A stretch of 64,000 nucleotides of DNA, from assembly GCA_023474425.1 (NCBI GenBank), contig JAMCXX010000002.1, positions 132,217 through 196,216 of the forward strand. The letters are read 5' to 3'. Shown here piece after piece: positions 17,720 to 64,000 of the stretch; position 1 is the first letter of the stretch; every line of letters starts with the position of its first letter. A program made the position numbers and the translations under genes. The notes beneath the pieces are model-generated. The model made no database searches, had not been told where the DNA came from, and worked only from the letters and a program-made list of their open reading frames with translations. The DNA is from Patescibacteria group bacterium (GTDB lineage Bacteria; Patescibacteriota; WWE3; JAMCXX01).

Positions 17720-19525
17720 ATGGACGCGCTCTATGTGACCACGGCCGGGGACGAGTTTGGCAAGACCGCTCTCAAAGTTCTCAAAAATTTAGGCTGCCGA
17801 ACAAAAGTTTTAGGCAGGAAGGAGTCAGCACCGGAAGGTTCGGTAGCCGTTTTTACGGCCATCAGAAAACCGCACGAGAAGCGACCCCGCTACCTGCGCT
17901 GCTCTTCCGTCCGACTAAATGATCGGGTTCCGGAGTGGGCCAAAACAACACCACTTCAAGTCGGTGTTTTCACCACCACCGACAGAAAATCCCGAAGCGG
18001 AAAAGGCACTTTCGCCAGCGCCTTGGCAACGCTTGACCTTATGTATAAAACCTGGGATTGGACATCGGGTAACCCCATACCCTGGGCAGATGTAAACAGA
18101 GATAAAAACTTCAAGACGGGTTCTATACAACTGGAAAGAGACCTCTCCTGGAGGAACAGTCCAGCATCGGTAAATCTTATTCAACGCTCCAGGCAGGATT
18201 TTACTACCTGCCAAAGAGTTGAGGAGCAGCTGCGAAAAGAGGGAGGCTACTTTGTGGGCGACCCAACCCAAGCCCTGCAAATAAGCCCGGACTTTTTCCT
18301 CGTTTCGACAGCCGAACTGGAAACGGCTCAAAGGAACTTGGAATTAATTCCCGAGTTCTGGAAAGAGGCTTTACATCTATACTACGACGCCATCGCTAGC
18401 AAAGATCGCAACCTTGAATGGCTGGCAAAAAGCGTGGAAGGACCAATAAATGCGGAACAGTTAAAATGGCAACGACTCGTGGCCAGAGCCTTGCCCAAAA
18501 CCCTGCCGCTATTTGCCCGGGCCGATCTTTCCAGCCTCTATCACCTGGTGGAAATTCAGGAAAGAATCGGCGGGCTAGGCCTCGTGGAAAGCTGGCTTAT
18601 GGCCATTCGCCAGGTTGCCGGAACTAAAAACGTAATCGGCGATGCTCAGGGATTTGCTCCGTCTTTCGCTGAGAGCGTCAAAATGGCAGTCGGAAAAGAA
18701 AGTCCTGTCGTCGCTCTTATCTGCCCAGAGGGCTACCAGGAAGAGCAGGGATTCCTTGCGCAGAAGCTTCGAAGCGAAGGTCTTAGCGCTTCGGTTGTCA
18801 GTAAAGAGACCATGGAGCAGGAGCTAGAACGTCGAAAGGGTTTCCTTTACCTAAAACGGACCGGAGTCAGAATTGACTTTTTGTATCGGCGGGAAATTAA
18901 TGCCGCTTCCATGGCGCTGACAGAAATCGGGCGGGGAATTATGAAAGTGGTTCTGGACGGAAACATCACCGTCGAGCCTCCGCTCAATATGATCTTTGAT
19001 TGCAAAACGCCCATGGCCTGGGTCCATGACCACCGCCTTAAAAGCTACTTTTCCGAAAGCATCCGGGCGGCAATTACGCCAACGGCTCTGCTTCCGGAAG
19101 ATATCTTTACCGATTTCAACCTCGCCGGGCGAACCTTAACAGCTAATGACCTAACCGGACACCCGTACGTCGTCAAATACGGCGGCGAAAACATAAAGTA
19201 CGGATTTGGCGGACGAGCCGTTTACAACACTAAAGATAACGCCGACGGCGTTAACGAAGGGCTGGAGCAAGTACGGTTGGGCCACCCCTGGGTGATTCAG
19301 GCAATGGACGAAACGAACTACACTGTTCGCCAATGGGACCGGAATTCAGGCAAAATTGAGTTCAAACACGGCGCGGGAAGACTCATGTTTCACTTGGTAC
19401 TCGAACAGAGCGAAAAAGGAACCCGGATTGTCACAGCCTGCACCCAAATTCGACCCAACCACTGGAAAGCAATTGGTTGCGCCGAGGCGGTTTTTCAGGA
19501 TATGAGACTAAAGGAGAGAGGTTAA
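17720..19525 (+). CDS. 601-aa protein: ~190-aa unknown N-terminal region plus a candidate ATP-grasp amide ligase resembling eukaryotic-type glutathione synthetase (tentative)
   Basis: Strong SD. By-eye resemblance to the GSH_synth_ATP layout: LFARADL..LVEIQERIGGLG (compare RSDYM..VEINTISxSFGGL), RIDFLYRRE (compare VAVVYFRDGY), YVVKYGGENIKYGFGG (compare LKPQREGGGNN Gly-rich loop) and PWVIQAM (compare YILMERI). Confidence 0.4.
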   Translation: MDALYVTTAGDEFGKTALKVLKNLGCRTKVLGRKESAPEGSVAVFTAIRKPHEKRPRYLRCSSVRLNDRVPEWAKTTPLQVGVFTTTDRKSRSGKGTFASALATLDLMYKTWDWTSGNPIPWADVNRDKNFKTGSIQLERDLSWRNSPASVNLIQRSRQDFTTCQRVEEQLRKEGGYFVGDPTQALQISPDFFLVSTAELETAQRNLELIPEFWKEALHLYYDAIASKDRNLEWLAKSVEGPINAEQLKWQRLVARALPKTLPLFARADLSSLYHLVEIQERIGGLGLVESWLMAIRQVAGTKNVIGDAQGFAPSFAESVKMAVGKESPVVALICPEGYQEEQGFLAQKLRSEGLSASVVSKETMEQELERRKGFLYLKRTGVRIDFLYRREINAASMALTEIGRGIMKVVLDGNITVEPPLNMIFDCKTPMAWVHDHRLKSYFSESIRAAITPTALLPEDIFTDFNLAGRTLTANDLTGHPYVVKYGGENIKYGFGGRAVYNTKDNADGVNEGLEQVRLGHPWVIQAMDETNYTVRQWDRNSGKIEFKHGAGRLMFHLVLEQSEKGTRIVTACTQIRPNHWKAIGCAEAVFQDMRLKERG

Positions 19526-21266: not shown

Positions 21267-22393
21267 AGCTTGAGTATGAAACGTATAAATACCTTTGTTT
21301 CATTAGGAAGCCCATTAAAGTCCAACGGCACATTTTTAGGTACGTTCCCCATACCGTAATTCCAGGCCGCCAACGTCTTCATTAGCTGCTCTTTGTCACT
21401 TTCATATAAACGATGAATCCGGCGAAAATACATGAATCCGGCAGTAATATTCTGGTCAACGTCAAAAATGTCGTTAACTACATAGCCCTCCTTACGAACA
21501 TTCTCGAGGGCCTCTGACCTCAGCTGGAAAAGTCCTCGAGCTTCCTTGCCCGAAACCGCTCCCGGATTAAACTGGGATTCTTTCTGCACAAGCCTCAACA
21601 TCATTTCCTCGTCAAAGCCGTACTCTCTGGCCTTGAATCTGATCTTATCTTTAATAATTTCAATTGGTTCCTTTGACGGAATGGGGTTTGAAGTTAAATC
21701 GAGGAAAATAATTTCCTCAAGAGTTGGCATTCGATCCGCCCAAAGTTCAACGTAGTGAAGACCGGAAGTAAAGTTCGTTTCAAATTGCCCCCTCTGCTCC
21801 TCCCCGAAAAATGAGGCAACGAAATACCAAAGCTTGTGTAGAATACTTCGGTAATTTTTTTGGACGGAGTTGTCAACTACTAACTTGACATCATCGCTGT
21901 CAAAAAACCTCCGTTTAAGATTTAAACTCAACGAAAACCCTTTTAGGAGAACCTCAAGGAAAACAAAAGTCAACCAGGGCCGGCGGTCTCCGTCCTCGGC
22001 AACCAGGTCAGAAAGGCTAATCTCCTCACCGGGCTCTATTTGCCAAACCTGAGTTTTCTCTAAAGTGGCGGAAATATCTGCCGTTAGGGCAACTCCATGA
22101 AGGCCGTTTTTTAAGGGGAGAAAGAAAAATACCGACTTGTTCAAACCGTGTAGTCTTCCACCGGAAAATCCGGCTGGACTGTCAAAGTATCGGGCCTGAC
22201 CGGAAAGAGATGGAAATTTTTGCTGGTCAATCTCCACCTTTAAATCTTCATCGTCGCTACCACCAATTTGCTTCTCACCTTTAACTCCGGCCCGGATCTC
22301 AATTAAGTAAAGAGAAGGAAAATCTGTATAAAAGCTCACCATTTCCAACCCTCTGATTTGCCTTTTGTTTAAATCTTCAAAAATCAATCTCAC
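21263..22393 (-). CDS. lytic transglycosylase (C-terminal SLT domain) with an unknown ~230-aa N-terminal domain
   Basis: SLT catalytic motif region LVQKESQFNPGAVSGKEARGLFQL .. AAWNYG. The N-terminal domain has a pseudogenised paralog at 1986..2616. Confidence 0.72.
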   Translation of the reverse strand: MRLIFEDLNKRQIRGLEMVSFYTDFPSLYLIEIRAGVKGEKQIGGSDDEDLKVEIDQQKFPSLSGQARYFDSPAGFSGGRLHGLNKSVFFFLPLKNGLHGVALTADISATLEKTQVWQIEPGEEISLSDLVAEDGDRRPWLTFVFLEVLLKGFSLSLNLKRRFFDSDDVKLVVDNSVQKNYRSILHKLWYFVASFFGEEQRGQFETNFTSGLHYVELWADRMPTLEEIIFLDLTSNPIPSKEPIEIIKDKIRFKAREYGFDEEMMLRLVQKESQFNPGAVSGKEARGLFQLRSEALENVRKEGYVVNDIFDVDQNITAGFMYFRRIHRLYESDKEQLMKTLAAWNYGMGNVPKNVPLDFNGLPNETKVFIRFILKL

Positions 22394-48450: not shown

Positions 48451-49743
48451 TTATTGGCCGGAGTAAGCGGCGGGAGCAGCGCCAGAAATAATATCCTGAA
48501 GGTTTTTCTTAGCGTTGGTTAAGGCGGTCTTGCTGTCCACGTTGCCGGAAACGTCAGTGATAGCGCGGTTGATTACGTCCGTCAGCCGATCGTTGCCGGA
48601 ATTGTCCACGGTTATGGCCAGTTTCCCCTGCGGCGCCGAAAGGAGCAGAGGTCCCAAATAAGGGTCGGCGGAAAGACTCGAAGCTAAATCTTTGCGAGAG
48701 TAGGCCTCACCAAAAAGTCTCCCGGCCGACTCCAGGGCATACATCTTGGTTTCCGAATCGGCGCTGCTCAAAAACTTTAGAAAGTCAAAAGCTTCATTTT
48801 TAAACTGGGAATTTTTGGCCACCACTTCCACCCAAAAAGAGGCTAGGTTTACCGGATTGTTAATGTTGCCCTGAAGGTCTGGAACCTGTGGCGGCGGGCC
48901 GGCCACAATGCTTAAACCCGGATTGGCAGCCTTAATACCAATAATTTCCCACGAGGGAGCAAAAATAAAAGCCACCTGACCACGGGCAAAAGCCAGAGTT
49001 GAGGGCGGCAGACTGCTGTCCCAAACTTTATCCACCTTGTAAAAATTGCTATAAAAAGTTAAGGCATCGGCGGCAAATTGGCTGTCAATATCGTTGGGAA
49101 TTTTTAAGCCGGCCTGCAAAAACATAAGGGAGAGAATATCCGAGGCGTAGGGAATATTGGAGGAAAGACCAATAGCTGCTCCGGCCTGGTTAAGCTTTTG
49201 GGAAGCAGTATCGGTCTTGGTCAGCTTGGCGGCGGCGTCGCGAAATTCGTCCCAGGTTTTGGGGAAAGGAATATTAGCGCTGTCCAAAAGAGTTTTATTG
49301 GCTAAAAGAAGCAAGCCGTCATACTCCAGAGGCACACCATAAATCTGCCCGTTAACCACTAGGGCTTCCCGGGCCGCTGGGTAAAAAGTATTGCTAAATT
49401 CGTTAAGGCTCATGGTTTTTGAAGGCATTGTTGCCAGATAAGGGACCAGATCTTTTACCCAAGTTGCCTGAACTCGCAGAATGTCTCCGGCTTTACCTTC
49501 TTTAAGACGCGTCAAAACCGTTTCTTTATATTGAGCCAAAGTGGAGAACGATTTTTGAGAGTAATCAATTGTGACGTTCGGATGAGACGAGTGGTAATCA
49601 TTAATCAAAGCGCTAAAAACATCGGGCCCTTCAAAAAGTCCCCAATAGGTAAGATTGGCCTTTGTTGGCCCGATGCCCGGAAGACTACAGGCGGTCAAAA
49701 GCAAAGCGGCTAATCCTAGAACCAATAGATGACGCAACTTCAT
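48451..49743 (-). CDS. ABC transporter substrate-binding lipoprotein (family 1, sugar-type)
   Basis: Lipobox LLLTAC after the MKLRHLL start, with a family-1 SBP-like layout. Confidence 0.7.
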   Translation of the reverse strand: MKLRHLLVLGLAALLLTACSLPGIGPTKANLTYWGLFEGPDVFSALINDYHSSHPNVTIDYSQKSFSTLAQYKETVLTRLKEGKAGDILRVQATWVKDLVPYLATMPSKTMSLNEFSNTFYPAAREALVVNGQIYGVPLEYDGLLLLANKTLLDSANIPFPKTWDEFRDAAAKLTKTDTASQKLNQAGAAIGLSSNIPYASDILSLMFLQAGLKIPNDIDSQFAADALTFYSNFYKVDKVWDSSLPPSTLAFARGQVAFIFAPSWEIIGIKAANPGLSIVAGPPPQVPDLQGNINNPVNLASFWVEVVAKNSQFKNEAFDFLKFLSSADSETKMYALESAGRLFGEAYSRKDLASSLSADPYLGPLLLSAPQGKLAITVDNSGNDRLTDVINRAITDVSGNVDSKTALTNAKKNLQDIISGAAPAAYSGQ

Positions 49744-49779
49744 TTCTATTTTTAAGAATAACATCTCTTGCTACTTCGG

Positions 49780-50979
49780 TCACTTCGACGCGGCCAATCC
49801 TAGGATCAGCCAAAAAAATAGGCTTCCCTGCTGATAGGTTAAGAGGTAGTGGTCGAAAGTACCTAGGAAAATTAATTGAATAAGTGATATTAAAAGCAGC
49901 CGGTGCCATGGCGTTCTTCTAATAAAGATATTAATTCCTACTAATATTAAAAGAAGAGAAAAAGCAATCAAACCAACCACACCAGTTTCGCTCAAAATCA
50001 ATAAAAAAATATTGTGAACTGGCTCCCTAATTAAATAGCCGGAAAAGTAGGTAAAAGACCCTAGGCCAAAGCCAAAGATGGGACGCTTTTGCCAAAGTAT
50101 TAAAGACTCCTTAATCAGATCCGAGCGGATATGATTAACCGGTTCAATGGGTAACTTGGTTATAGTGAAGAAAGAAATGATTAACGAAAACATAAAAATA
50201 CCCCCAATAGTTAAGAATCGTTTTGACCTTTGAAAAAAGTTCAGAATATAAAAAACAAAAAGACCCAGTAAAAAAGCGCCCCAGGCTCCTTCGGAAAAAC
50301 TTAACATAAGCCCTAAAAAGCCAAATAGCATGCAGATAAAAAGAAATAATCTAATTTTCCTTGATTGTTCTCTTCGCCAAAGCCAAATGAGCCAAATAAG
50401 AAACACAGCCATAAAACCGCCTAAGACATTAGGATGGGGAAATGAGCCGAAAGACCTCACCTTAACGTTTCCAAATAAAGAAACGAGCGGCGTTTGACTA
50501 TATGAGGGGTAGAACGAGGGTTCACCGAAAATTAAGAAAGGAAAAATAGGCCCCTGCTTAATCCACTGCACAAAGGCTAATATTCCCTCAACAAGGGTAC
50601 TCAACCCGGTAATTAGGAGCAGTCGGTAGACTTTTTCATTTGACCAAGACTGTCTACTTAAGTAGAGAAATAGTGAAACGTAAAGAAAATAGCGAAACCA
50701 GAAATAGACGGCTAAGGTTAAAGGCGATAATAAGCAGGAGATTAAAAATACCGTCAGAACTAACACTGCCGGTAACCAAAGCAAACTCTGGGATTTTCTT
50801 TTTAATATTAGATTTAGCCAGAAAAGAATAACCAGGATAGCGAGGACGGTATCGGTCAGGTAAGTTTTTGGTACCAAATAGGAATCAAGAACACCTTTAA
50901 CGTAAGAAGTAGGCAAAAGAAATTTTTTATAAAGACCTAGCGGTGTTAAGAAAACTAACAAAATAAATATTTTTTCCAT
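49780..50979 (-). CDS. O-antigen ligase-like polytopic membrane protein
   Basis: About 11 TM helices and a Wzy_C-like central loop (SFSEGAWGAFLLG). Confidence 0.5.
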   Translation of the reverse strand: MEKIFILLVFLTPLGLYKKFLLPTSYVKGVLDSYLVPKTYLTDTVLAILVILFWLNLILKRKSQSLLWLPAVLVLTVFLISCLLSPLTLAVYFWFRYFLYVSLFLYLSRQSWSNEKVYRLLLITGLSTLVEGILAFVQWIKQGPIFPFLIFGEPSFYPSYSQTPLVSLFGNVKVRSFGSFPHPNVLGGFMAVFLIWLIWLWRREQSRKIRLFLFICMLFGFLGLMLSFSEGAWGAFLLGLFVFYILNFFQRSKRFLTIGGIFMFSLIISFFTITKLPIEPVNHIRSDLIKESLILWQKRPIFGFGLGSFTYFSGYLIREPVHNIFLLILSETGVVGLIAFSLLLILVGINIFIRRTPWHRLLLISLIQLIFLGTFDHYLLTYQQGSLFFWLILGLAASK

Positions 50980-51192
50980 GTTTATTCCCAAAGTCGTTTA
51001 AGCGTTTCTTTACTCGTCTAAAAATAAGACGTTGTAGATGTAGTTAATGTTAGTTTGTGACTTTCTTAAATAATCCCACAGGCTGTCTGTTAAATTTGCC
51101 AGAGTAATCTCTGGAAAAGTAAAACGCTTTTGACCAGAAGGTTTTCCGGTTCGGATACCAATTTTGTGGCTTGGTTGTGGTACAAATACCCT

Positions 51193-51281
51193 TGTGTATA
51201 AAATCATTATATCTGTGGATAACTATGAATATAAATTAACGAGTTATCCACAAGTATTACAAGGAAAACTATTTATCCACA
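51193..51281. promoter_or_regulatory. oriC candidate: DnaA-box cluster in AT-rich DNA
   Basis: Perfect boxes TGTGGATAA (51214-22), TTATCCACA (51244-52) and TTATCCACA (51273-81), plus near-box TGTGTATAA (51193-201). A further TGTGGATAA lies at 52729-37, upstream of dnaA. Confidence 0.6.
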
Positions 51282-52691
51282 TATTTTAAGATTAAGATAA
51301 CTTATCTTTTGAAAGATCTCTCCTTCGTCTTTTACCTCATTTTCAATCTTGTTTACGGCGTGAATAACCGTGGTATGGTCGCGACCACCCAAAATCTGCC
51401 CGGTCTGCACCAGTGAGAGACGACCTAGTGTTCTTAAAAGGTACATGCAAACTTGACGGGGAATAACCAGCTCTTTTTTGCGTCGCGGGCCTATTAAATC
51501 TTTATGGCTTAGATTAAATAGCTCACAAACTTCCTCCATAATTTTTTTAGGCGTCGGTTTTTGCTTTTTGACCAGAAGTTCGTTGTGGAGAAGAACTTCC
51601 ACGGCCAGTTCTAAATTGACCTCCTGGTTCTTAGTTTTGGCGCTGGAAACGATTTGCAAAAAAACCCCTTCCATTTCTCGGATGTTGGTTTTGACTTCCC
51701 GGGCAATAAAATCGATTACCTCATTGGTTACGTTAAATCCGCTTTTGTCTCTCTTGTTTCGAAGTATCGCCGCCCGCACCGTCTCGTCGGGAGCCTGAAT
51801 GTCGGCAATCATGCCGCCGGCAAAACGGGAGCGCAGGCGTTCTTCGAGCAAAGCAATATCCCGCGGCGGGCGGTCCGAGCTTAAAACCACCTGTTTTCGG
51901 GCTAAATAAAGTTGATTGAAGGCGTGAAAAAGTTCCTCCTGAGTGGTTTCTTTGCCGGCCACAAAGTGGACATCATCAATAAGCAAAACATCGGTGTTGC
52001 GGAATTTGTCGCGGAAGCGATGTTGGCTTCGGTGCTGAATGGCTTCTAAAAGCTCGTTGGTGAAAGATTCACCGCTTGAGTAAACCACTTTGGTTTGCGG
52101 CAACCTTTTAATAATTTCGTTGCCAATAGCCTGCATAAGGTGTGTCTTGCCGAGGCCTGTTGAAGAATAAATGAAGAATGGGTTATAGGCAGTACCGGGA
52201 TTTTGGGCAATACTTTGCGCGACCGTAAAAGCCAGCTGGTTTCCTGGTCCTACAACAAATTCGTCAAAGGTATAAAAGGGAGAAAGTCCAAAGGAGACGG
52301 ACTTTAGGTTGGCTGTAACGGGCGGCGTTATAATTTTTGGCGTTTCTAGAGTCGGTGCTAAAGAATCAGTTTGATTGGAGTTTTCTTTTACAAAGCTGTC
52401 TTCAACCTTTTCACCAAAAATCGGTCCCAGTGGTTTTTCTTCCGCTTGGCGCAGGCGAAGTCCCAAATTAAAATCAGTCCCGCCTCGAAATTCGCGAAGA
52501 ACCTTTTTAAGAGATTCTAAATAATGCCGATTAACTCTTTCCAGAGCGAAAACATTGGGAAATAATATTTCAAAATTACCGGCCTCGTCGCCAAGCAACT
52601 CCGTTTTATAAAACCAGGTTTTCACGGTGGGGGGAAGAATTTCCTTTTCCAAAGAGCTTAAAATAATTGGCCACTGTTTAACGGGATTCAT
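51273..52691 (-). CDS. dnaA: chromosomal replication initiator protein DnaA
   Basis: Walker A SSTGLGKTHL, LLIDDVHF, sensor and box VII regions, and a C-terminal DNA-binding domain (DHTTVIHA). Confidence 0.96.
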   Translation of the reverse strand: MNPVKQWPIILSSLEKEILPPTVKTWFYKTELLGDEAGNFEILFPNVFALERVNRHYLESLKKVLREFRGGTDFNLGLRLRQAEEKPLGPIFGEKVEDSFVKENSNQTDSLAPTLETPKIITPPVTANLKSVSFGLSPFYTFDEFVVGPGNQLAFTVAQSIAQNPGTAYNPFFIYSSTGLGKTHLMQAIGNEIIKRLPQTKVVYSSGESFTNELLEAIQHRSQHRFRDKFRNTDVLLIDDVHFVAGKETTQEELFHAFNQLYLARKQVVLSSDRPPRDIALLEERLRSRFAGGMIADIQAPDETVRAAILRNKRDKSGFNVTNEVIDFIAREVKTNIREMEGVFLQIVSSAKTKNQEVNLELAVEVLLHNELLVKKQKPTPKKIMEEVCELFNLSHKDLIGPRRKKELVIPRQVCMYLLRTLGRLSLVQTGQILGGRDHTTVIHAVNKIENEVKDEGEIFQKISYLNLKICG

Positions 52692-52888
52692 GAAGGTGAA
52701 GAGCTAATAAAATCAATATAGTTAAGCCTGTGGATAAGCGTCAATAACTCATAATTATAAATTTCCGCAAACACGTATCCCCTATAGTTCTAACAAATTA
52801 ACATATAAACATCAGCCTTAGGCCGTATCCGATTTCCGGTGACGAAAGAGCTTGACGGAGGCTGTTAATTCTTGGATAGTATAAAGGT

Positions 52889-53026
52889 ATGCCCAAAAGG
52901 ACTTATCAGCCAAACAAAAGGAAAAGGGTCAAAACTCACGGATTCAGAGCCCGCATGCGCCGGCCCGGCGGACGAAGGGTCTTAAAGAGCCGCCGTTTGA
53001 AGGGTCGCCAGCGGCTAACGGTCTAA
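52889..53026 (+). CDS. rpmH: 50S ribosomal protein L34
   Basis: My own translation gives [23 protein letters not shown].. (45 aa). The ORF is below the track size cut-off, and its stop overlaps the rnpA ATG (taatg). Confidence 0.9.
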
Positions 53027-54964: not shown

Positions 54965-56068
54965 ATGAAGTTTAAGTGTCTTTCCGAGAATTTATCCCAG
55001 GGCCTTTCCGCTGTTTCCCACGCCGTTTCTACTAAAGCCTCTTTACCGGTTCTTTCGCATATACTTCTCGAAGCCAGGGACGGTTCCATTTTTCTTTCGG
55101 CCACCAATCTGGAAATCTCCATCCGCACGAGTCTGCCGGCCGAACTCGAGGAAGAAGGGGCGGCCTGTTTGCCCGGCCGTGTTTTTACCGAGCTTATTTC
55201 CAGTCTGCCCAAAGGAGAAATCAGTTTGGCGGAGAAAAATAATTTAGTCACCGTTAAGAGCCAGAAGACAAGTTCTAAAATTAACGGTCTTAATCCTTCG
55301 GAATTTCCCAAAATTTCCGTTTCTGGAAAGCCTTTGTTCTCGCTAAATCCGTCGGTCTTAGTTCAGGAGTTGCCTAAAGTTTCCTTTAGCGCCGCCACCG
55401 ATGAGGGTCGCCCGGTCTTGACCGGAATTCTTATGGAAGCTTTGGATGGGACGCTGACTCTTGTGGGAGTTGACGGCTTTCGTCTTTCCGAAAAAAAGAT
55501 CTCTGTGGATAAAGGCATAACCTTTAAGCAGGTAGTTCCAGCCAAGGCTTTGTTGGAGGTTTCCCGGCTTCTCTCCAGCGAGGATAGTATGGAAGTTTTA
55601 CTCTCCGACGAAGAGAATCAAATTGTTTTTAAATCTCCTAGTTTTGAAATCTGCAGCCGGCTTTTGGAGGGCAGTTTTCCCGATTACAAAAAAATTATTC
55701 CACAGAACGTTCTGACCACGGCCGAGTTTAGCGTTGAGGAAATGAGGGCCACCCTGCGCACCGTTTCCGTTTTTGCCAAGGACGAAGGCAGTGTGGTTAA
55801 AATGATTCTGAATCCGGAAAAGTCGGAGATTTTGCTTTCGGCCAGTGCTTCGGAGGTCGGCGAAAACGAGGCTTCCCTCTTTGCCAAAATTACCGGCGAG
55901 GCCGCCGAGGTTTCCTTTAACATCCACTACCTAAACGATTGCCTGGCAAACATCGGCGAGGAAGACGTGGCTTTCCGTTTTACCGGTCCCTTAACCCCCG
56001 GCATTTTTGTGCCCGTTGCTAAAACCGATTACCTCCACCTCATTATGCCCATCCGCGTTCAGGCATAG
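54965..56068 (+). CDS. dnaN: DNA polymerase III subunit beta
   Basis: 367 aa with a three-domain clamp layout and a C-terminal IMPIRV motif. Confidence 0.95.
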   Translation: MKFKCLSENLSQGLSAVSHAVSTKASLPVLSHILLEARDGSIFLSATNLEISIRTSLPAELEEEGAACLPGRVFTELISSLPKGEISLAEKNNLVTVKSQKTSSKINGLNPSEFPKISVSGKPLFSLNPSVLVQELPKVSFSAATDEGRPVLTGILMEALDGTLTLVGVDGFRLSEKKISVDKGITFKQVVPAKALLEVSRLLSSEDSMEVLLSDEENQIVFKSPSFEICSRLLEGSFPDYKKIIPQNVLTTAEFSVEEMRATLRTVSVFAKDEGSVVKMILNPEKSEILLSASASEVGENEASLFAKITGEAAEVSFNIHYLNDCLANIGEEDVAFRFTGPLTPGIFVPVAKTDYLHLIMPIRVQA

Positions 56069-56138: not shown

Positions 56139-58082
56139 TTAATTCGTGTGGGGCTCGGGCGGCGGAGAGCCGCCGGAAGCTTCCACCGGAAAAGGCGGCT
56201 GTGTGGGGTTAATGTTCGGGACTGGGTTAGCCGGCACTTGAGTTGCGGGGTTGGGCCGCGCGCCATCTTTATTGAGCGAAGCCAGAATTTCTTTGGGAGA
56301 AGTGGTAATGAGCTTGTGTTCGGAAGGGGATGCCACCACCTGCATGGCCACGTGATTGGTGCCGGCAAAAAATAAACCTTCGCCAACATTGCAGGAAAGC
56401 AGAAATTTCTTTTCCCCGTCGGAGAGGTAAAAAACCTCCCCCAGTTTATCAATGGCCGCCGGGCTCTGTTTAAAAAGAACCTGCAGAGAAGAGTTGGTCA
56501 CGATCGCCTTGCCGTAGTCCGAGCTTAAAAAATCCTCCACATCTTGGGTGATTGTAGAAAGACCCAAGTAGTATTTGCGTGCCCTTTTGGCAATGGAGTA
56601 AATAAAGGTGGCCGATTCCGGGTACTGCATTAAGTACCATGCCTCATCAACCACAAGAATTCTTCTTTTAATTTCGCGGCGTATTTTTGTCCAAATATAG
56701 TCAAGAATAATGTACATGGCAATGGGGCGAAGCTGGTCTTCCAAGTCGCGGATGGAAAAAACGGTAAAGGTATTGCGGATGTTAATGTTTGAACGCTGGT
56801 CAAAAATGCCGACGAGAGAGCCTTTAATATAGCGCTCGAGCATGTCCGCCAGAGTTTTGGCGTCGGTATCTTCCATGGCCAGAAGAACTTTGTAAAGATC
56901 TTCCATAATCGGCGGTTCATTTTTTTGCGTTCCCGGGTCGGCGGTAATGCCTTTAAGTTTATAGGTGGCCACAAGCGCGCGGTCCAAGACAGCTTCCTGG
57001 GTGGCGCTAATGTTTTTAAAAATTATTTTAAGAAGGGTATGGAGCGATAGGATTTTTAGACCCAACTCGTTTTCGCCCTCTTCGTAGACGCCAGAGAGGT
57101 CGAAGGGATTAATCTTGGAGGGGCTATTGGGTGAGAAAGTTATATACTCGCCGCCGATAGCCTGGGTGAGTTTCTGGTATTCGGACTCGGGGTCAATGAC
57201 AATGATTTCCGCGCCGAACATAAGGGAACGGAGAGCCTCAAGTTTGACCATGTACGATTTACCGGCGCCGGACTTGGCAAAAATAACCATATTGGCGTTC
57301 TCCAGCGAAAAGCGGTCAAAAATAATCAAAGAACCGTTGTGCTCGTTAATGCCGTAAAGGGTGCCCTCATTGGCCGTCAGCTCCGAGGAAGTAAAGGGAA
57401 AAGTCGTGGCCAGCGAAGTTGTGTCCATGTTGCGGATAATGTAGAGCTTGTCGAGGCATAGTGGAATGGTTGAGGCGAAGGCGTCTTCCATTTGCAAGGT
57501 GGCGTGCTTGGAAAAAAGCAGAAGACTGCCCAAAACCGCTTCCACTCTTTTGGTTACGGTGTTGAGCTCCTCAAGCGATGAGGCGGGAATGGTGATGTAG
57601 AATGAGAACTGAAAAAATCTCTCAACGCCTTTGACCAGCTGTTCCTGAAGAGCTAAAGCGTCTTCCAGGGCGGCTTTAACCACCGGGTCGGTGACTTTGC
57701 CCTGCTCGCGGTCGGCGTTCATGGTTGCTTCCATTTCGGCAATCTTGCGCTTTAAATTGTCCAGAATTCCGTGGGAGGCCACCGGGTAGTAGAACATGGA
57801 AATGTCGAGCGTGTGGTCAAAGTTGATTAAGGGGGAGAGCCAGTTGGCCCCCACAAAACGCGGGTAGCCGGAAACAAAAATGGTGCGGAAGTAGCCATTG
57901 CCGATTTTCACATAGTCAAAGTCAACCTCCAAGGCGGATGGTGAAATAAGGTCGAGAATTTCGGTAATACCTTCGGCCACCTGGTTGGTCTTGAGGTTCA
58001 GCTCCTCGTCCCTGATTTTTGCGCTTTTCGCTGTATTTTGGTCAGCCGGACTTTTTTTATCTTTCCTGCCAAATAGTGCCAT
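56139..58082 (-). CDS. VirB4/TraC-like type IV secretion ATPase
   Basis: Walker A AKSGAGKSYMVK and Walker B ILVVDEAW. The N-terminal region (GYFRTIFVSGYPRFV..W) is typical of Gram-positive-type VirB4. Confidence 0.8.
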   Translation of the reverse strand: MALFGRKDKKSPADQNTAKSAKIRDEELNLKTNQVAEGITEILDLISPSALEVDFDYVKIGNGYFRTIFVSGYPRFVGANWLSPLINFDHTLDISMFYYPVASHGILDNLKRKIAEMEATMNADREQGKVTDPVVKAALEDALALQEQLVKGVERFFQFSFYITIPASSLEELNTVTKRVEAVLGSLLLFSKHATLQMEDAFASTIPLCLDKLYIIRNMDTTSLATTFPFTSSELTANEGTLYGINEHNGSLIIFDRFSLENANMVIFAKSGAGKSYMVKLEALRSLMFGAEIIVIDPESEYQKLTQAIGGEYITFSPNSPSKINPFDLSGVYEEGENELGLKILSLHTLLKIIFKNISATQEAVLDRALVATYKLKGITADPGTQKNEPPIMEDLYKVLLAMEDTDAKTLADMLERYIKGSLVGIFDQRSNINIRNTFTVFSIRDLEDQLRPIAMYIILDYIWTKIRREIKRRILVVDEAWYLMQYPESATFIYSIAKRARKYYLGLSTITQDVEDFLSSDYGKAIVTNSSLQVLFKQSPAAIDKLGEVFYLSDGEKKFLLSCNVGEGLFFAGTNHVAMQVVASPSEHKLITTSPKEILASLNKDGARPNPATQVPANPVPNINPTQPPFPVEASGGSPPPEPHTN

Positions 58083-58098: not shown

Positions 58099-58791
58099 TC
58101 ATTGCCCTTCCACCGCCGCCTGAACTAAAGGCGCCGTGTATTCGGCTGCCTGGCCGCGCAGTCTTTCCTCGGCCGAAGTGTAAGGGTTGTAAATATCGTA
58201 AAAAAGCTCTACCAGCTCCTGCGTGTCGAGTTTTTTGGCTTTAATTCCCACCCGTGAGAGCTGTTTAATAATCAAATCTACCTTCGGCTCAAGTTGAATT
58301 TTCCCTTTGTCCAAAAGAGCCCGCCGATTAACCCGCGGCGCTTTTTTTTGCGGCAGCCCGAGGAAATTTAGAAAGGCGCTAAAAATAGAGGCCTCCGGTT
58401 TTAGGGAGACGTCCTGGTAGGGAACGACCACATAAAAACGTTTGTCCAGGACCTCGTTTTTGGAAATGAGCTCGGAAACATAGCCGCGGTAATTTTTAAT
58501 CTGCTCGCGAAGATAAGGGTTGGTCTGGCTCTGTTCAACCGATTCCAGACTCTCCACATAGCTGCTAATATCCATTTTTTTGGAGCGGATGACGATTTGA
58601 ATAGGGAAGGTTAGAGAGTTTAAAAATTGCGAATAGCCGGCAATCATGGCATCCTGCTCTATCTCTGATAGCAGGTCAAAATTGACGGCCGTGGTCTGAA
58701 TAACCGCCGCCGCCCCGTTGTTTTTGAGAAGAACATACCCTTCCCTTATGTCCTCAATATCAAGTCCTTCCTGGGTTGAAGCTAGTGCCAT
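58099..58791 (-). CDS. hypothetical protein, T4SS-module associated
   Basis: 230 aa, translationally close-packed between the PrgI-like and VirB4-like genes. No catalytic motif recognised. Confidence 0.4.
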   Translation of the reverse strand: MALASTQEGLDIEDIREGYVLLKNNGAAAVIQTTAVNFDLLSEIEQDAMIAGYSQFLNSLTFPIQIVIRSKKMDISSYVESLESVEQSQTNPYLREQIKNYRGYVSELISKNEVLDKRFYVVVPYQDVSLKPEASIFSAFLNFLGLPQKKAPRVNRRALLDKGKIQLEPKVDLIIKQLSRVGIKAKKLDTQELVELFYDIYNPYTSAEERLRGQAAEYTAPLVQAAVEGQ

Positions 58792-58794
58792 AAA

Positions 58795-60588
58795 TTAGAT
58801 TCCCACAAAATCCAACGGTTCCAGGACCTCGCCGAAGGCGTCAACATTCATTATAGCAAAGGTTTCTCCCGGCGCCGACGCCTCCACCGTGTAGTGCCCG
58901 TTGGGAACTACAGTGGTAATGGCAAACTGGCCCAAGGCGTTGGTCTTCAAGGCTCTCACCGGCGAGCCGTCGGCATCTTTAACAATAATGACGGCGTTTT
59001 TAATTAAGTCGCCGTTTTTGGCGCGCACATAGCCGCTAATCACGTTGGCCCGATCTTTAACAAACGGCGGCAAGCGGCCAATGCTTTTGGCGGCCGGTGA
59101 GGGAGCCGGTCCGCCGGCCGGCGGAGGCGGCGGGGTAAACCTCTGCTTAAGGCGCAGTTCGCGCATTTCTTTTTGTAGGTTAATTAAAGAGTCGGTGGCC
59201 TGGGTTTTTTCACGGGCCAGCTCCTCAACTCTATGTTCATTGTCTCTAATTTGTTTAATTAAATTCTCCCTATCCGATTGCGTATTGGTTGTAACCTCTT
59301 TAAGCTTAGAAAGTTCCGCTTGGGCCTGTCTAATTTCGTTGCTAAGTCTTGTGTTCTGTGCAGACATTTCGCTTGCCCGACGCTGGTACTCCTCGGCCAT
59401 GGCCGCCAGAGTTTCGGCTTCTTCTCTGGCTTTCTTTTGCTCCAGAAGTTCTTTGGCCAGATTTTCACGGTCGCGCCGCATTTTTTCCAACTCATCCTTA
59501 AGATAGCCTATTCTGGCGGCCTCCTCGCGCTGGGAAATGGTTTCCGGCGATTCGGAAGGCTCTACCGGCTTTGACTGAGTACCCGCCTCTGCCGGAGCCC
59601 CCGTTATATTGCTCTGCTTTGATAGAGTTGAATCATCATGTTTTGACTCTATAACGGTAGATCTGGGAGTAGTTTTTTGGGCTTCGGAAATTTTTTGGTC
59701 CACATCCACAATTCTTTGGGTCAGGTTTTCGGCCAGCTCCGAAGTTTTGGCAGGAGGAGCATCTTCCGGGCGGGAGAGGGAACGCTCGCCTTTAATAGCT
59801 ATGCCCACTTCACCTGGTTTAACCAGCCGCAGTCGGCGCCCGGAACGTACGTTTTGAATGGGGGTTACGAATTTTGGCGCTCCTCCGCTAAGGCTTGGCA
59901 GGCTAATCACCTTTTCCTGCGAAAAATTTATTTCCGAAGCAAGATTTTTGCCAAGCTTAACCTCGGCGCGGGGTTTAAAAGATTCGCGGTCGGAAACTGC
60001 TTCTCCCTCCGCCGGTTTAACGGTAGTGGTAGGCGCAGCCGAAGTTTTGGGGGCCAGAGAGGAAGGCACGGAAACTTCTGACTGCAGGAAAGAAACGCTT
60101 TTTAAGAATTCCTTTTCGGCCAGGTCTTCCGGTGTCAGATTGGCATCCGCCGTTTGGCGTAAGTATTCATTAAGCTGGGATTTGTCGCGCGGCAGGTAGT
60201 TTTGCTTTTCCTGCCTAATGGCGGTGTGTGCTTCCCGCAGTTCAAAAAAAACGTCCAGGTTGGCCGCCCCTTTTCGCCAGACCCGCTCGGTGGGGGAGGA
60301 GACAGCCATTAAAAAGTTCTTGAGCCAGACGTCGGCCGAACGGTCCTGAATGGGGACCAGAGACAAAAAAGCGCCGAAAATGGCCACAACGGCCGCCACG
60401 GGAGTTTTAATAAACGAGGGCATTCCGGAAGAGTAAATAATCCAGGCCAAAATTATAAATACAGCCAAAAGACCGAACTGACGCAGGGTCAGGCCGCCCA
60501 CGAGTTTAAACTCTACCCCCATTACGTTTTGGGGAATGGGGTGCTGCTGGTGTGTTTTTTGGGCCTCAAAAGAATCGTCGTTGGCCAT
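58795..60588 (-). CDS. PrgI/VirB3-like membrane protein fused to a long coiled coil, a Pro-rich linker and a C-terminal carboxypeptidase-regulatory-like beta-sandwich
   Basis: N-terminal GVEFKLVGGLTLRQFGLLAVFII plus a second TM helix (PrgI-like). A Glu/Lys/Arg/Ala-rich heptad region, then PPPPPAGGPAPSP, then ISGYVRAKNGDLIKNAVIIVKD..GQF..PNGHYTVEA. Confidence 0.55.
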   Translation of the reverse strand: MANDDSFEAQKTHQQHPIPQNVMGVEFKLVGGLTLRQFGLLAVFIILAWIIYSSGMPSFIKTPVAAVVAIFGAFLSLVPIQDRSADVWLKNFLMAVSSPTERVWRKGAANLDVFFELREAHTAIRQEKQNYLPRDKSQLNEYLRQTADANLTPEDLAEKEFLKSVSFLQSEVSVPSSLAPKTSAAPTTTVKPAEGEAVSDRESFKPRAEVKLGKNLASEINFSQEKVISLPSLSGGAPKFVTPIQNVRSGRRLRLVKPGEVGIAIKGERSLSRPEDAPPAKTSELAENLTQRIVDVDQKISEAQKTTPRSTVIESKHDDSTLSKQSNITGAPAEAGTQSKPVEPSESPETISQREEAARIGYLKDELEKMRRDRENLAKELLEQKKAREEAETLAAMAEEYQRRASEMSAQNTRLSNEIRQAQAELSKLKEVTTNTQSDRENLIKQIRDNEHRVEELAREKTQATDSLINLQKEMRELRLKQRFTPPPPPAGGPAPSPAAKSIGRLPPFVKDRANVISGYVRAKNGDLIKNAVIIVKDADGSPVRALKTNALGQFAITTVVPNGHYTVEASAPGETFAIMNVDAFGEVLEPLDFVGI

Positions 60589-60638
60589 AGCCTTATTTTA
60601 ACACCATTAAGCTTTAGCCCGCCTATAAACCTATAGCC

Positions 60639-60667
60639 TTGACTTTTGGGAATTTTGGTGCTATAAT
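60639..60667 (+). promoter_or_regulatory. near-consensus sigma70 promoter with extended -10 (TTGACT-17 nt-TGCTATAAT)
   Basis: -35 TTGACT at 60639-44, a 17-nt spacer and -10 TATAAT at 60662-67 preceded by TGC. It points toward the 893-aa gene, about 440 nt upstream of its ATG. Confidence 0.55.
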
Positions 60668-61106
60668 AATAAGGTATAGAAAGGTATTTTAAGAAAGCCT
60701 TTATAAAGGCTAAAAAAGCACTCTAATTCATTTAAGCCTTCGCACCCGTTTTGGGTTTTTGGAGAGACGAGATAAATTTGACCCGTTCGACAGGCTCAGG
60801 GCAAGCATCCGACAACCGATATTTAGAAGAAGCTAATAGGCAAAAAGTTCGTCCTCCAATACCAAAAGGGCGGTTTTTGGTTTGTCCGATTTGACTAATT
60901 TGCCTAATTGGTCAGATTGGACTAATCAGGGTCCGGCTCTTTGACAATTGAATAGTAAGGTTTAACCAGAACCTTTACCCGTCGCGAAGGGAGTAGAGAA
61001 AGATTGTTTCGCGTCAGGGTTTAATCTGGAATAAACGAGACGAAAGTCTCGAGAAAAATAAATCGAAGAAATAAAAATATCAATCAATGTCCAAAAGGAG
61101 GACAAG

Positions 61107-63788
61107 ATGTACGATTACGACGATCTCGACCAAATGGAGGTTGAGGCGATGGATGTAGACGAAGGAGCTCCGGCCGACGAAAAAGAAGCCGAGCGCCGAC
61201 GCCGCATCGCCGCCGTCCGGTCGCAGTACTTTAGCAACCTGGTCTTTGCCGGATTGCTCGAGGAGTACCGCGAAACGGGCGAGCCTATTGGCATTACCCC
61301 GCAGGAGTTGAAGGTTTTGCTAAAAAGCGAGCTTTCCTATTTCCTGCGCGATGACAAGCCGGAACGCATGGTCTGGTACGACCTAGCCGGTAAAAGTCAT
61401 CGGTTCCGTGTGGACGGCGATGAGACAGCTTTCTTTTTTGGTCCCTACGGACCTCTGGAGAAAGCGTCTAAGGATCCGAAGCATGAATACTTTGCCGTCT
61501 ATCGCAAGTACGAAGAGACGTATCCCCACCTCAAAAACAAGTGGGTGGAGAGAGTCGTTGAGTGGTCCAATCCCGACGACCCGGTTGACCCCAACGGTCA
61601 ATGGAAGGAAACGGGGTTGAAGGAATGGAAGACCACGTGGGTAGACAGAAACAACCACTACGCCGCAATGGGAATGCGTCGGAGCAACAAGCGTTTCGGA
61701 GTTGAGAAGATCGAGAATCCGGCTACCAAGGTGGAAGAAACGGTTCCGGAGGGGAAACGAACACGCGTCGGGGTCACCGAATTCTTTATGGAAGAGTGGC
61801 TGCGCCTCAAGAAGTTTTTGAGGGACGCTAATGCCACCAAAGATCCGGTTACAATCAAGCAGGCGCGGGCGGCGGTTTACGCTTACTGCCGGACCTACGC
61901 CGACTCCGACTGGAAAGGGTTTGTTGAGTGGGGCGGCAATGAAGTAGTGATGAAGTTCTTTAGGATGTCCCGCGAGCACGAAGATAAAACTTCGGTCGCC
62001 CGCGAGCTTAGCCGCTACGAACAAGCCCAGGACATAATCTCCGGTTCCATGCTTTACCAGTTTCTTGACCTCATTAAGATGACCAAGAAATTGCGCGAGA
62101 CCAGGCTAATCCGCGACCCGGCCACAGGCTTTACTGTCTACGACTGGAAGGACGCAGTAACCAAGACGGTTATCACCGGTTTTGTCTGCAGTGACAAAGC
62201 TACGGCCGTCCGCATCTTCTATCTCCTACAGCAAATCGCCGGTGGGGTTTCACCGAATGTGGATGAGCCGGTAACCCGCACACCGCGGGACGAAGCTGCT
62301 TTACTTCCAGACGCTCAAACCGGACCGGACTGGGAAGTTTTTGGCGACTTTTACCTGACCATCGAACCTTCGGTTATACCGGAGCGTAAACGGCCGACGA
62401 ACGTGCCGAGGACAGGGAGTGAGGAGTATTTCCGGTTCGAGGACGGCATGCGCCAACGGGTTCTTTGGTATTGGCTCGACCGAGCCGATGCCGAAACCAT
62501 TCGTGCTCTGAATCGACTTGAGGCGGACAATCTTCTTACCGTGAAGATTGTGGAGGATGCCTTCCGCTGGGACGGCAACGTTCGTTGCTATGCCCATTGG
62601 TCGGCGACTCCTGCTGGGGAAGCGCGCCGTCAGGCCTTGAGGCTTGATTATCACGAGCGTGCCTCCATCCAAGAAGAAACCAAGATGTTAGTTAACGGAG
62701 AGCGGGAGACCATGAAGTGGAGCGACGCCAACAAAGCGTTTGACTCCCGAGACGGTTTGTACTGGAGGCTCCCGCCCTTGCAGGCCGAGCGCCGGGACTA
62801 CTGGCTCGATTACATCGACCAGTTGCACTTCCGGTGGTTCACGCATCCCGAGTTGGGATTGGCGGCTTACGAAGGGACAGACAGATCCGCGGCGGAGAAA
62901 GCCTTCGTGGAGGGCTTTGGTAAGCATCACAAAGAGCTCTCCATCTTTGGCAATCGCGCCTACCCGCTCCTGCAGAATCTGTTCCGGTTTGCCGACGGGC
63001 GGACGGCTCTGGGTAACTTTCTCGAGTCGCGCGGCGCCAATGCCCGCGTGATGCAGCCTCCAAGAGATCCAAAATATGGGACCGGCTACGATCCCGACGC
63101 GCGTTGTGTTGGTCAGATCGTGAATGGTGCCTATGCCCGGCAACGTTTCGACGGTCACACTCATGGCGAAGATGTCATGATGTGTGAGGCCAAACATCCG
63201 GGCGAGAGTCCGCGGCAGCACTACATGCGTGTGCGCTACATGCGCAATATAGCGCGCATCATTCTCGGTTGGCTTAACCGCATGGTTGACAACGAGAACT
63301 GGCTCAACGACTACTACTCCCACCTACCTACTAAGATCCAGAATGCCCGGGAACTTCTCGATCTGAAACTCGAAATGATTAAGGGCGGTAACGCTAGAGC
63401 CGTCCTTATCATGACTTTCAGCGAATGGATTTTAGGTCAGGGAGGAAAGGACGAGGAGCGGGTGCGTTCCCTGGTCGAGAAGAAATTCGCAGCTATGGCC
63501 GACGTCCTTTTGCCCGGCGTTTCGGAAAAAGAGATCGAGGTGGTGGAAAGGGCTTCGGAGGACATGTGGCTCGATATGATGCTGCATGTTACCAAGTTCG
63601 TCTTACAGAGTATACGCTCGAAAGAGATTCGAGCCTCCCACATCGGAGAGACAGAAAAGGATCTTGTCCGGACGCTCGACTACGAGGTCTACGGGTATCT
63701 GCAAAAGAATCCCTGGGCCCGTGAAGGTTTGAGCCTCCAGTTCAAGGAGATTACTGGGCAAGATCTACGATGGGAGGGTTGGGATTGA
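61107..63788 (+). CDS. 893-aa orphan protein (no recognisable domain); acidic N-terminus, rich in Trp, Arg, Glu and Asp
   Basis: A 2.7-kb uninterrupted ORF with SD AAAGGAGGA 5 nt before the ATG. It looks GC-richer than its surroundings. I found no Walker, RuvC/HNH, DDE, HUH-with-Tyr or CxxC motifs. Confidence 0.8.
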   Translation: MYDYDDLDQMEVEAMDVDEGAPADEKEAERRRRIAAVRSQYFSNLVFAGLLEEYRETGEPIGITPQELKVLLKSELSYFLRDDKPERMVWYDLAGKSHRFRVDGDETAFFFGPYGPLEKASKDPKHEYFAVYRKYEETYPHLKNKWVERVVEWSNPDDPVDPNGQWKETGLKEWKTTWVDRNNHYAAMGMRRSNKRFGVEKIENPATKVEETVPEGKRTRVGVTEFFMEEWLRLKKFLRDANATKDPVTIKQARAAVYAYCRTYADSDWKGFVEWGGNEVVMKFFRMSREHEDKTSVARELSRYEQAQDIISGSMLYQFLDLIKMTKKLRETRLIRDPATGFTVYDWKDAVTKTVITGFVCSDKATAVRIFYLLQQIAGGVSPNVDEPVTRTPRDEAALLPDAQTGPDWEVFGDFYLTIEPSVIPERKRPTNVPRTGSEEYFRFEDGMRQRVLWYWLDRADAETIRALNRLEADNLLTVKIVEDAFRWDGNVRCYAHWSATPAGEARRQALRLDYHERASIQEETKMLVNGERETMKWSDANKAFDSRDGLYWRLPPLQAERRDYWLDYIDQLHFRWFTHPELGLAAYEGTDRSAAEKAFVEGFGKHHKELSIFGNRAYPLLQNLFRFADGRTALGNFLESRGANARVMQPPRDPKYGTGYDPDARCVGQIVNGAYARQRFDGHTHGEDVMMCEAKHPGESPRQHYMRVRYMRNIARIILGWLNRMVDNENWLNDYYSHLPTKIQNARELLDLKLEMIKGGNARAVLIMTFSEWILGQGGKDEERVRSLVEKKFAAMADVLLPGVSEKEIEVVERASEDMWLDMMLHVTKFVLQSIRSKEIRASHIGETEKDLVRTLDYEVYGYLQKNPWAREGLSLQFKEITGQDLRWEGWD

Positions 63789-63846
63789 TGGTAGAACTCA
63801 CAAAGTAGTTCCTCTTGGGGAGGATTATTCGAAAGGAGAGTGAAAG

Positions 63847-64000
63847 ATGGCATACTCATGGCCAAAAATGAGTCCAGGGCGGGCTGCCAAATATTGGCTG
63901 AAGAAGTACTCGCAGAACCCAGCTTGGCCAGCGGAGGCACTGACTCTAGAGTTCGGGGCCCTAAAGATCCCCGGCGCCATTAGTCTGATTCCGTTTGCCC
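63847..64000 (+). CDS. hypothetical protein, 5' part only (runs off the window end)
   Basis: My own translation: SD AAAGGAGAG, then ATG at 63847, MAYSWPKMSPGRAAKYWLKKYSQNPAWPAEALTLEFGALKIPGAISLIPFA.., open to base 64000. Confidence 0.5.
   Translation, partial: MAYSWPKMSPGRAAKYWLKKYSQNPAWPAEALTLEFGALKIPGAISLIPFA

Follow-up and report, generated by a model that had tools for sequence, protein, structure and literature searches.

The stretch of DNA analysed here (the window) comprises 64,000 nt of a Patescibacteria group bacterium assembly (GCA_023474425.1, contig JAMCXX010000002.1, positions 132,217 to 196,216), and positions are numbered from its first letter. At its downstream end, two co-oriented genes lie among the genes of a type IV secretion system (T4SS). 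The first one, X893 (61107–63788, plus strand), is an open reading frame (ORF) of 2682 nt with an ATG start, which encodes a soluble, acidic protein of 893 aa and is preceded by the strong Shine-Dalgarno sequence AAAGGAGG at 61094–61101, 5 nt ahead of the ATG. The second one, Y269, starts with an ATG at 63847 behind the ribosome site AAAGGAG at 63832–63838. Its first 51 codons (63847–64000, plus strand) are inside the window and the reading frame continues past the window end. Both ORFs with their ribosome sites had been reported in a preliminary description of this DNA and both were found, so at least two co-oriented genes are present. The full product of Y269, 269 aa, is encoded on L001, a 17-kb contig obtained by exact-match look-up that overlaps the window from 54859 and runs 8 kb past its end.

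The gene order on the window and L001 is dnaA ... yidC-jag-dnaN, then virB4, a traC/trsD-like gene and prgI on the minus strand, then X893 and Y269 on the plus strand. Y269 is followed by the genes for a 473-aa polytopic, VirB6-like protein (minus), a 1139-aa M23 hydrolase (plus), a 347-aa protein (plus) and two T4SS pilins (minus). The genes past 64000 are further T4SS components, and X893 and Y269 thus lie within the cluster, between prgI and the VirB6-like gene. The module had been described as starting where the PrgI/VirB4 operon ends. This has to be corrected, as X893 starts at the 5' end of that operon and the two units diverge across a spacer of 518 bp. X893 and Y269 (together X-Y) form a genuine two-gene cassette within the T4SS cluster, which is restricted to a small clade, always occupies this slot, is hypervariable and is compositionally distinct.

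X893 founds an orphan family of five members. Four relatives, P0001 to P0004 (E 8e-41 to 6e-10), were recovered when 1.84 billion cluster representative proteins were searched exhaustively with HMMER. A word-indexed homology search of 5.8 billion proteins gave no match with X893 alone or with the five-sequence alignment, and a pattern scan of JGI metagenome contigs and IMG/VR revealed no relatives. The earlier failure to place the protein in any family was borne out. X893 has no significant match in Pfam, PHROGs, PADLOC or NCBIfam and none in PDB, either by sequence or by profile search, and nothing significant was obtained for any of the homologues. No P-loop or T4SS-DNA_transf/TrwB match was found for X893 and its four homologues at E ≤ 10, no relaxase domain of Pfam or NCBIfam was matched by X893, and no toxin domain was matched in any of these five libraries. 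No transmembrane (TM) helix is predicted, the highest 19-aa Kyte-Doolittle hydropathy being 1.12. The library scans and the hydropathy agree with the earlier view that the protein has neither a P-loop nor a TM helix. X893 has a pI of 5.8 and is rich in tryptophan (2.9%), arginine, aspartate and glutamate. The acidic N-terminus and the many tryptophan and arginine residues had been noticed before, and the acidic N-terminus is common to P0001 and P0002.

X893 contains five cysteines. The statement that it has no cysteine clusters is slightly qualified by a candidate metal-binding motif, C667-x16-H684-x-H686-x6-C693 (residues 667–695, window 63105–63191), which is common to P0003 and, loosely, to P0004. 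In P0001 and P0002 the C...HxH...C segment is deleted, including the HxH at 684–686. The arrangement in X893 could bind metal. The best-conserved blocks of the family are, from the N-terminal part to the middle, MSRExxDK (about 285–292), RWFTHPxLGL (576–585) and EGFGxHxKExSxxGNR (602–617), and further on YDPxxxCxG (661–669), DGHxH...CEA (682–695) and WxNxxxD (722–728). Opposite X893, the minus strand has the two antisense ORFs longer than 200 aa that had been pointed out before (61383–62024, 213 aa; 62688–63323, 211 aa). Because long antisense stop-free stretches recur in all five genes of the family at differing positions, these ORFs were judged to be by-products of a sense frame rich in GC at third codon positions (GC3) and not genes.

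Y269 has a lysine/arginine-rich N-terminus, about five TM helices and a proline-rich C-terminal tail bracketed by two cysteines, with the C-terminal end CPxxxVWTGxRCxGTK. According to the positive-inside rule, the tail would be extracellular. The layout and the C-terminal motif CPxGxVWTGxRCxGTK are kept among the Y proteins despite sequence divergence. An identical protein is listed at NCBI, only as 'hypothetical protein M1352_01385, Patescibacteria group bacterium'. Nothing significant was found for Y269 and its homologues in Pfam, PHROGs, PADLOC and NCBIfam, the match of Y269 to PADLOC defence models being marginal (E 0.003). A Y-like gene lies 3' of the X gene in L001, L082, L083 and L086, with a gap of 1–71 nt or an overlap; in L083 the two genes overlap by 4 nt.

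The locus of P0002 (L083–L085) has the same gene order as the window and L001, from dnaA-rpmH-rnpA-yidC-jag-dnaN through to the pilin array. The gene of P0003 (L086) is followed by a Y-like gene, a polytopic gene and an M23 gene, and the order agrees over the part present. On short contigs, P0001 is followed by the gene of a Y-like membrane protein and P0004 by a 48-codon ORF fragment. Each X relative with sufficient flank occupies the same prgI/VirB6-like slot, with a Y-like gene next to it. Conserved synteny together with an already assigned function had been named as what would speak against the gene being a secretion cargo or part of a mobile element. The synteny was found within the small clade, and a function is assigned nowhere. 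As outgroups, 80 loci of GTDB species representatives with related VirB4 genes (VirB4 57–78% identical) were used. No X relative was found in these loci with tblastn (E ≤ 10), with hmmsearch using the family profile or with hhalign. X-Y is absent from the closest WWE3 outgroups. In L004 and L010 of these, the VirB6-like gene directly adjoins prgI in the same orientation, and L009, L022, L024 and L027 have one small opposite-strand membrane ORF between the VirB6-like gene and prgI; no kinship of Y269 with these ORFs was detected (hhalign probability 2%). From this distribution, X-Y would either have been gained in the ancestor of the small clade or lost elsewhere. No donor lineage was found among the 1.84 billion representatives.

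In many other Microgenomatia, the VirB6-like gene has as its neighbour a different large ORF (640–1385 aa) that lies on the opposite strand and in most cases has no predicted TM helices. In VirB4-plus orientation, these minus-strand ORFs lie at 5521–7755 in L007 (744 aa), 5484–7406 in L013 (640 aa), 5721–7910 in L069 (729 aa) and 1845–4649 in L051 (934 aa). One family is formed by those of L012, L014, L021 and L026 (924–1385 aa; L012 1702–5139, L021 2382–5156) and another by those of L033 and L042 (884–1080 aa; L033 1174–3828, L042 1418–4660). The slot ORFs are mutually unrelated or belong to tiny families. A Pfam domain was absent from 8 of the 10 candidate slot ORFs scanned, and the other two were identified as an AddA-like helicase-nuclease and, in L058, a genuine coupling protein. 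The latter was readily found with the same tool, and the Pfam scan thus does detect such families. That the slot ORFs are diverged X homologues was rejected by hhalign, which gave probabilities below 1% when the X family was compared with 12 large unannotated ORFs of related T4SS loci, 8 of which are slot ORFs. Their tetranucleotide correlation with their own loci is below typical and their GC3 is not raised. The VirB6-side slot in Microgenomatia may serve generally for cargo or accessory genes.

X and Y diverge much faster than every neighbouring gene. Between L001 and L083, the proteins are identical to 84% for VirB4, 76% for the TraC-like protein, 64% for DnaN, 56% for the VirB6-like protein, 53% for PrgI, 45% for M23 and 38–69% for the pilins. 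The X proteins are identical to 27% over about 560 aa, and similarity between the Y proteins is undetectable by BLAST. Between L083 and L086, the identity is 64% for M23, 52% for the VirB6-like protein and 23% for Y, and the X proteins are unalignable, the best segment having 31 aa. The similarity within the X family falls into two parts. Residues 4–509 of X893 match P0001 and P0002 and residues 433–873 match P0003 and P0004, while neither pair detects the other. This pattern would reflect either module exchange or very uneven divergence.

The divergent control region of 518 bp (60589–61106) separates prgI on the minus strand from X893 on the plus strand. A putative sigma-70-type promoter, TTGACT-17-TATAAT with an upstream TG (60639–60667, plus strand), faces X893 and agrees with 11 of 12 consensus positions. 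The promoter is held in a block of roughly 55 nt, ATAGCC-TTGAC..TATAATAATAAGGTATAGA.AGG, which is conserved in L083; the remaining spacer is unalignable. The promoter of X893 is overlapped on the minus strand by a weaker promoter-like sequence (60692–60663), and X893 and the prgI operon may be under shared control. If the 60639–60667 promoter is used, X893 would have a leader of roughly 440 nt (window 60639–61106). The fold of this leader has a z of -4.7 (0 of 100 shuffles as stable) and is dominated by a long imperfect hairpin at 60864–60943 (plus strand). A stem-loop of GNRA type, CGAGAC-GAAA-GTCTCG (61036–61051, plus strand), is located about 55 nt ahead of the start codon. It recurs in 4 of 4 leaders with three stem pairs altered on both sides, which is weak evidence from four sequences. 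Rfam gave only sub-threshold miRNA-precursor-like matches on the leaders, far under the gathering score, which were taken merely as a sign of a hairpin. The leader region compared with window 60639–61106 was L083 9240–10000. Between L083 and L086, about 400 nt of non-coding leader are 83–85% identical (L083 9299–9967 versus L086 126–1011), which exceeds the identity of every flanking coding sequence (M23 DNA 72%). A conserved RNA with a regulatory role, or a conserved leader element, may lie here. The equivalent stretch of the window is unalignable save for a TTGACAA..AATAG motif and the terminal hairpin.

A modest compositional shift had been suspected from hand counts, and it proved to be real and stronger than these counts implied. 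In 2-kb windows, the GC content is 0.54–0.55 over 61–64 kb, 0.43–0.49 over most of the window and about 0.49–0.50 in the adjoining T4SS genes. The X893 gene ranks first of the 46 window genes in GC content (0.551 versus 0.467 ± 0.032 for the 45 others) and in GC3 (0.658, z +3.0). Its tetranucleotide usage correlates with that of the region at r = 0.59, compared with 0.85–0.94 for all other 3-kb windows (z -5.9). The anomaly is limited to X-Y, roughly 61.1–64.7 kb in extended coordinates. In the protein, R, E, D, W and M are raised and L, S and I are lowered. The synonymous codon choice is also shifted. ATC makes up 0.56 of the isoleucine codons in X893, compared with 3–24% in six native genes and 0.14 in GroEL, and TTC makes up 0.50 of the phenylalanine codons, compared with 0–29% and 0.00, respectively. 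The bias of highly expressed native genes was rejected as the cause, as GroEL prefers ATT/TTT and X893 prefers ATC/TTC. The ATC and GC3 shift recurs in the X genes of L082, L083, L086 and L087, where the flanking genes keep native usage. It is also present in most Y genes, less consistently than in X (Y in L082, L083 and L086). The five X genes correlate in tetranucleotide usage at r 0.48–0.70 with one another versus 0.19–0.53 with their own genomes. Since synonymous sites are saturated at about 27% protein identity, the cassette signature must be actively maintained. Possible causes are that sequence is repeatedly brought in from a separate gene pool, that GC-biased gene conversion acts at a recombination hot spot, or that the mRNA is under some constraint.

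This distinct composition raises two alternatives. It had been suggested that the block could hold the opening genes of an integrated element, which would be a mobile element (an island, an integrative and conjugative element or a prophage) abutting the T4SS genes, and within the window the GC and k-mer shift does begin at the end of the T4SS operon. The shift stops after Y269, about 3.6 kb on, and the VirB6-like, M23 and pilin genes come directly next. L001, including its 8 kb past the window, was found to contain no integrase or tRNA gene, no att-like direct repeats and no genes of mobile elements. Likewise, X-Y has no phage, plasmid or viral matches in PHROGs, in the IMG/VR pattern scan or by tblastn against phage and plasmid collections. 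The same arrangement also occurs in independent metagenomes, and an integrated element is thus a very improbable explanation.

According to the other alternative, X-Y is a horizontally acquired pair unlinked to secretion (a defence, addiction or selfish pair), which landed in a permissive T4SS spacer and was then inherited. The non-native composition and synonymous codon choice, the spread limited to a small clade, and a slot that is empty or otherwise filled in several outgroups are consistent with such an origin. Against it, X893 has no PADLOC defence match and that of Y269 is marginal, and neither phage, plasmid or viral relatives nor a donor lineage were found in the searches described above. 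The position has been kept across lineages diverged to about 27% identity, and conservation extends to the strong predicted promoter in the control region shared with prgI. If the pair had been transferred once, long ago, and had then ameliorated, its atypical codons would not be expected to persist despite saturated synonymous sites. We therefore regard this origin as unlikely.

The genes upstream of the control region belong to the T4SS operon, all on the minus strand. Its first gene encodes a PrgI/VirB3-like protein of 597 aa (58795–60588), which matches PF12666 PrgI (2.8e-08) and PF13620. This protein is unusually long: the PrgI membrane domain at its N-terminus is followed by a long coiled-coil-like middle rich in Ala, Glu and Lys, then by a Pro-rich linker and, at the C-terminus, by a CarboxypepD_reg (prealbumin-like) domain. 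This layout suggests that the VirB3 here has an extracellular extension. The TraC/TrsD-like protein of 230 aa (58099–58791) has a precomputed match to PF26593 (TraC-like) and a weak one to PF11130. The VirB4-type ATPase of 647 aa (56139–58082), of the TraG/AAA_10/DUF87 type, matches PF19044 (1.5e-30), PF12846 (4e-14) and PF01935, and is 57–78% identical to VirB4 of WWE3, Curtissbacteria and other Microgenomatia metagenome-assembled genomes. On the other side of X-Y, the 473-aa VirB6-like protein (L001 9883–11304, minus strand) has 7–10 TM helices and no Pfam or NCBIfam match. Its homologues have 5–10 predicted TM helices (7–10 when full-length), and its place in the cluster is conserved. The M23 cell-wall hydrolase and the two pilins of L001 correspond to PF01551 and PF18895 in Pfam. 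In L083, a gene with a 23S_rRNA_IVP (PF05635) match (21545–21952, minus strand) is interleaved in the T4SS pilin array.

The remainder of the window is ordinary chromosomal DNA, which encodes GAPDH, GroEL, aminoacyl-tRNA synthetases, DnaA (51273–52691) and DnaN (54965–56068). Its lowest-GC stretch, 49000–53000 (0.40–0.41, z about -2.2), covers dnaA and the presumed oriC region and includes a Wzy_C/O-antigen-ligase-like gene (49780–50991, GC 0.375). A second large orphan of 601 aa (17720–19525, plus strand, GC 0.516) has no Pfam match at E ≤ 0.001.

The cluster is an oriC-proximal, monoderm-type (MPF-FATA-like) T4SS of an ultrasmall WWE3/Microgenomatia Patescibacterium. According to published reports, the T4SS of Patescibacteria is of monoderm type and located by the origin genes (PMC12102498), and it is required for epibiotic growth, being essential in Southlakia epibionticum (PMC10633639, PMC12857230). 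The same sources indicate that its cluster encodes no relaxase or coupling protein and that its substrates are not known (PMC10633639, PMC12102498, PMC12857230). VirB6 is described as hard to detect in Microgenomatia (PMC12102498). In the present case, too, neither a coupling protein nor a relaxase turned up in the cluster or among those window ORFs that were scanned.

In the light of this gap, X-Y could also be a non-secreted accessory of the machine, a cytoplasmic adaptor or platform X893 tethered via Y269 that replaces coupling-protein or VirB8-like functions. X-Y is placed between core T4SS genes and has a control region shared with prgI-virB4, and the tight coupling of X and Y, with the 4-nt overlap in L083, points to a soluble and a membrane subunit that form a complex. 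Genes for type IV coupling proteins (T4CP) and VirB8 are, according to published surveys, seldom close to virB4 in Patescibacteria (PMC12102498). This reading is weakened by relatives with VirB4 65–78% identical, which have otherwise complete-looking clusters without X-Y, so X-Y is not a core T4SS part. X893 has no P-loop or ATPase signature. Furthermore, cytoplasmic structural subunits normally evolve slowly, and no soluble protein of the cluster diverges faster than X893. An accessory role of this kind, although rather doubtful, is the main rival of the reading given next.

The reading that we favour, still tentatively and at slightly less than even odds, is that X893 is a client of the T4SS, either a substrate/effector or an adaptor, and that Y269 is its membrane partner. 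The location of X893, its rapid divergence, its solubility and its clade-specific spread are circumstantial points that would favour a translocated effector. X893 and Y269 would be co-transcribed as a lineage-specific cassette in the variable slot that has prgI/virB3 on one side and the VirB6-like gene on the other. X893 would be expressed from the strong predicted promoter, within a control region common to the prgI-traC-virB4 operon, and would act as a soluble T4SS client, most likely either a translocated substrate/effector or a substrate-recruiting adaptor. Y269 would serve as the membrane partner of X893, with the variable Pro/Cys-rich tail exposed at the surface, and it could function in docking, immunity or exclusion. 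X-Y may have been diversified by selection at the epibiont-host interface and by allelic replacement or recombination between conserved flanks. Selection combined with recombination at the flanks would account for the modular divergence and for the persistent non-native composition.

A more specific version, to which we give clearly less credence, is that X-Y is an exchangeable 'cargo/identity' cassette. X893 would be the first candidate for a translocated substrate of this machine and Y269 its cognate membrane protein for immunity, exclusion or docking, with alleles swapped by recombination at the conserved promoter/leader and virB6 flanks and drawn from a pool that has a GC-rich codon usage of its own; the slot ORFs of other Microgenomatia would be equivalent cargo.

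Several points weigh against a client role. X893 shows no recognisable domain of an effector, a toxin or an enzyme, and it carries no known secretion signal. To our knowledge, no translocation signal has been defined for monoderm T4SSs or for those in CPR (candidate phyla radiation) bacteria. The AlphaFold2 models were uninformative, with a predicted local distance difference test score (pLDDT) of 38.7 for full X893 (five-sequence alignment) and of 39.4 for its C-terminal module, both unusable. Gene neighbourhood alone is no proof of function, as a permissive intergenic slot could hold unrelated genes, and orphan genes are common in CPR genomes. The modular similarity read as recombination could be uneven divergence. 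The odd oligonucleotide signature is partly due to the unusual amino-acid composition, and the slot ORFs elsewhere show a lowered signature correlation without the GC3 shift. Taken with these points, the earlier suggestion of a secretion-associated gene stands in part. The constant prgI/VirB6-like slot makes the link to secretion plausible, and the cargo or effector role can only be proposed.

The T4SS itself is known; the X-Y family and the variable slot beside virB6 were not found in the available text of published surveys. Among T4SSs, that of Patescibacteria is the only one reported as essential to the growth of the cell that carries it (PMC10633639, PMC12857230). X893 and Y269 are a concrete and testable candidate for a T4SS cargo or a host-specificity determinant, and the variable virB6-side slot with its unrelated large orphans could steer a systematic search for CPR T4SS substrates. 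The codon signature, which persists across alleles about 27% identical, is an unexplained evolutionary observation. If X-Y is unrelated to secretion, it is merely another CPR orphan family.

In comparison with known systems, the cluster shares with the MPF-FATA-like T4SS of Patescibacteria VirB4, a TrsD/TraC-like protein, PrgI/VirB3, a polytopic protein of putative VirB6 type, M23 and an array of VirB2-type pilins, together with the chromosomal site beside dnaA/dnaN and the absence of a relaxase (Wang et al. 2023, PMC10633639; Quinonero-Coronel et al. 2025, PMC12102498). Nothing resembling X or Y was found in the available text of these accounts (PMC10633639, PMC12102498). Compared with the closest outgroup clusters, where the virB6-prgI junction is contiguous, the junction is here interrupted by a 3.6-kb hypervariable cassette on the opposite strand. 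VirD4/TcpA coupling proteins and relaxases are likewise large proteins; they are encoded within or close to T4SS clusters and handle substrates from the cytoplasmic side. Unlike them, X893 has no Walker motifs, TM anchor, HUH/Rep_trans or other relaxase signature, or Pfam match.

Polymorphic cassettes such as O-antigen/capsule loci, pilin loci and the TraG/TraS-Eex exclusion pairs are another parallel. They resemble X-Y in that nearly unalignable alleles lie between conserved flanks, here the promoter/leader and the VirB6-like gene, that GC and codon usage deviate in every allele, and that a variable polytopic membrane protein has an exposed region. In contrast to these loci, X-Y has yielded no evidence of allelic exchange and is known from five alleles. 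Exclusion proteins also differ in being small and in having no soluble partner of 800–900 aa.

Effector-immunity modules, such as those in the variable regions of Bacteroidales type VI secretion systems and the pairs of the Xanthomonadales X-T4SS, differ from X-Y in two respects. X893 shows neither a recognisable toxin or catalytic domain nor a known recognition domain, XVIPCD-like or other, and Y269, with five TM helices and a long tail predicted to be extracellular, is not a typical small immunity protein. In both cases, a conserved machine cluster contains a fast-evolving, lineage-specific slot of odd composition, which is filled by non-homologous genes across lineages and in which the gene of a large soluble protein is transcribed together with that of a smaller partner downstream. 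A downstream partner that co-varies is a further trait of such modules, and it is also found here, as Y diverges as fast as X.

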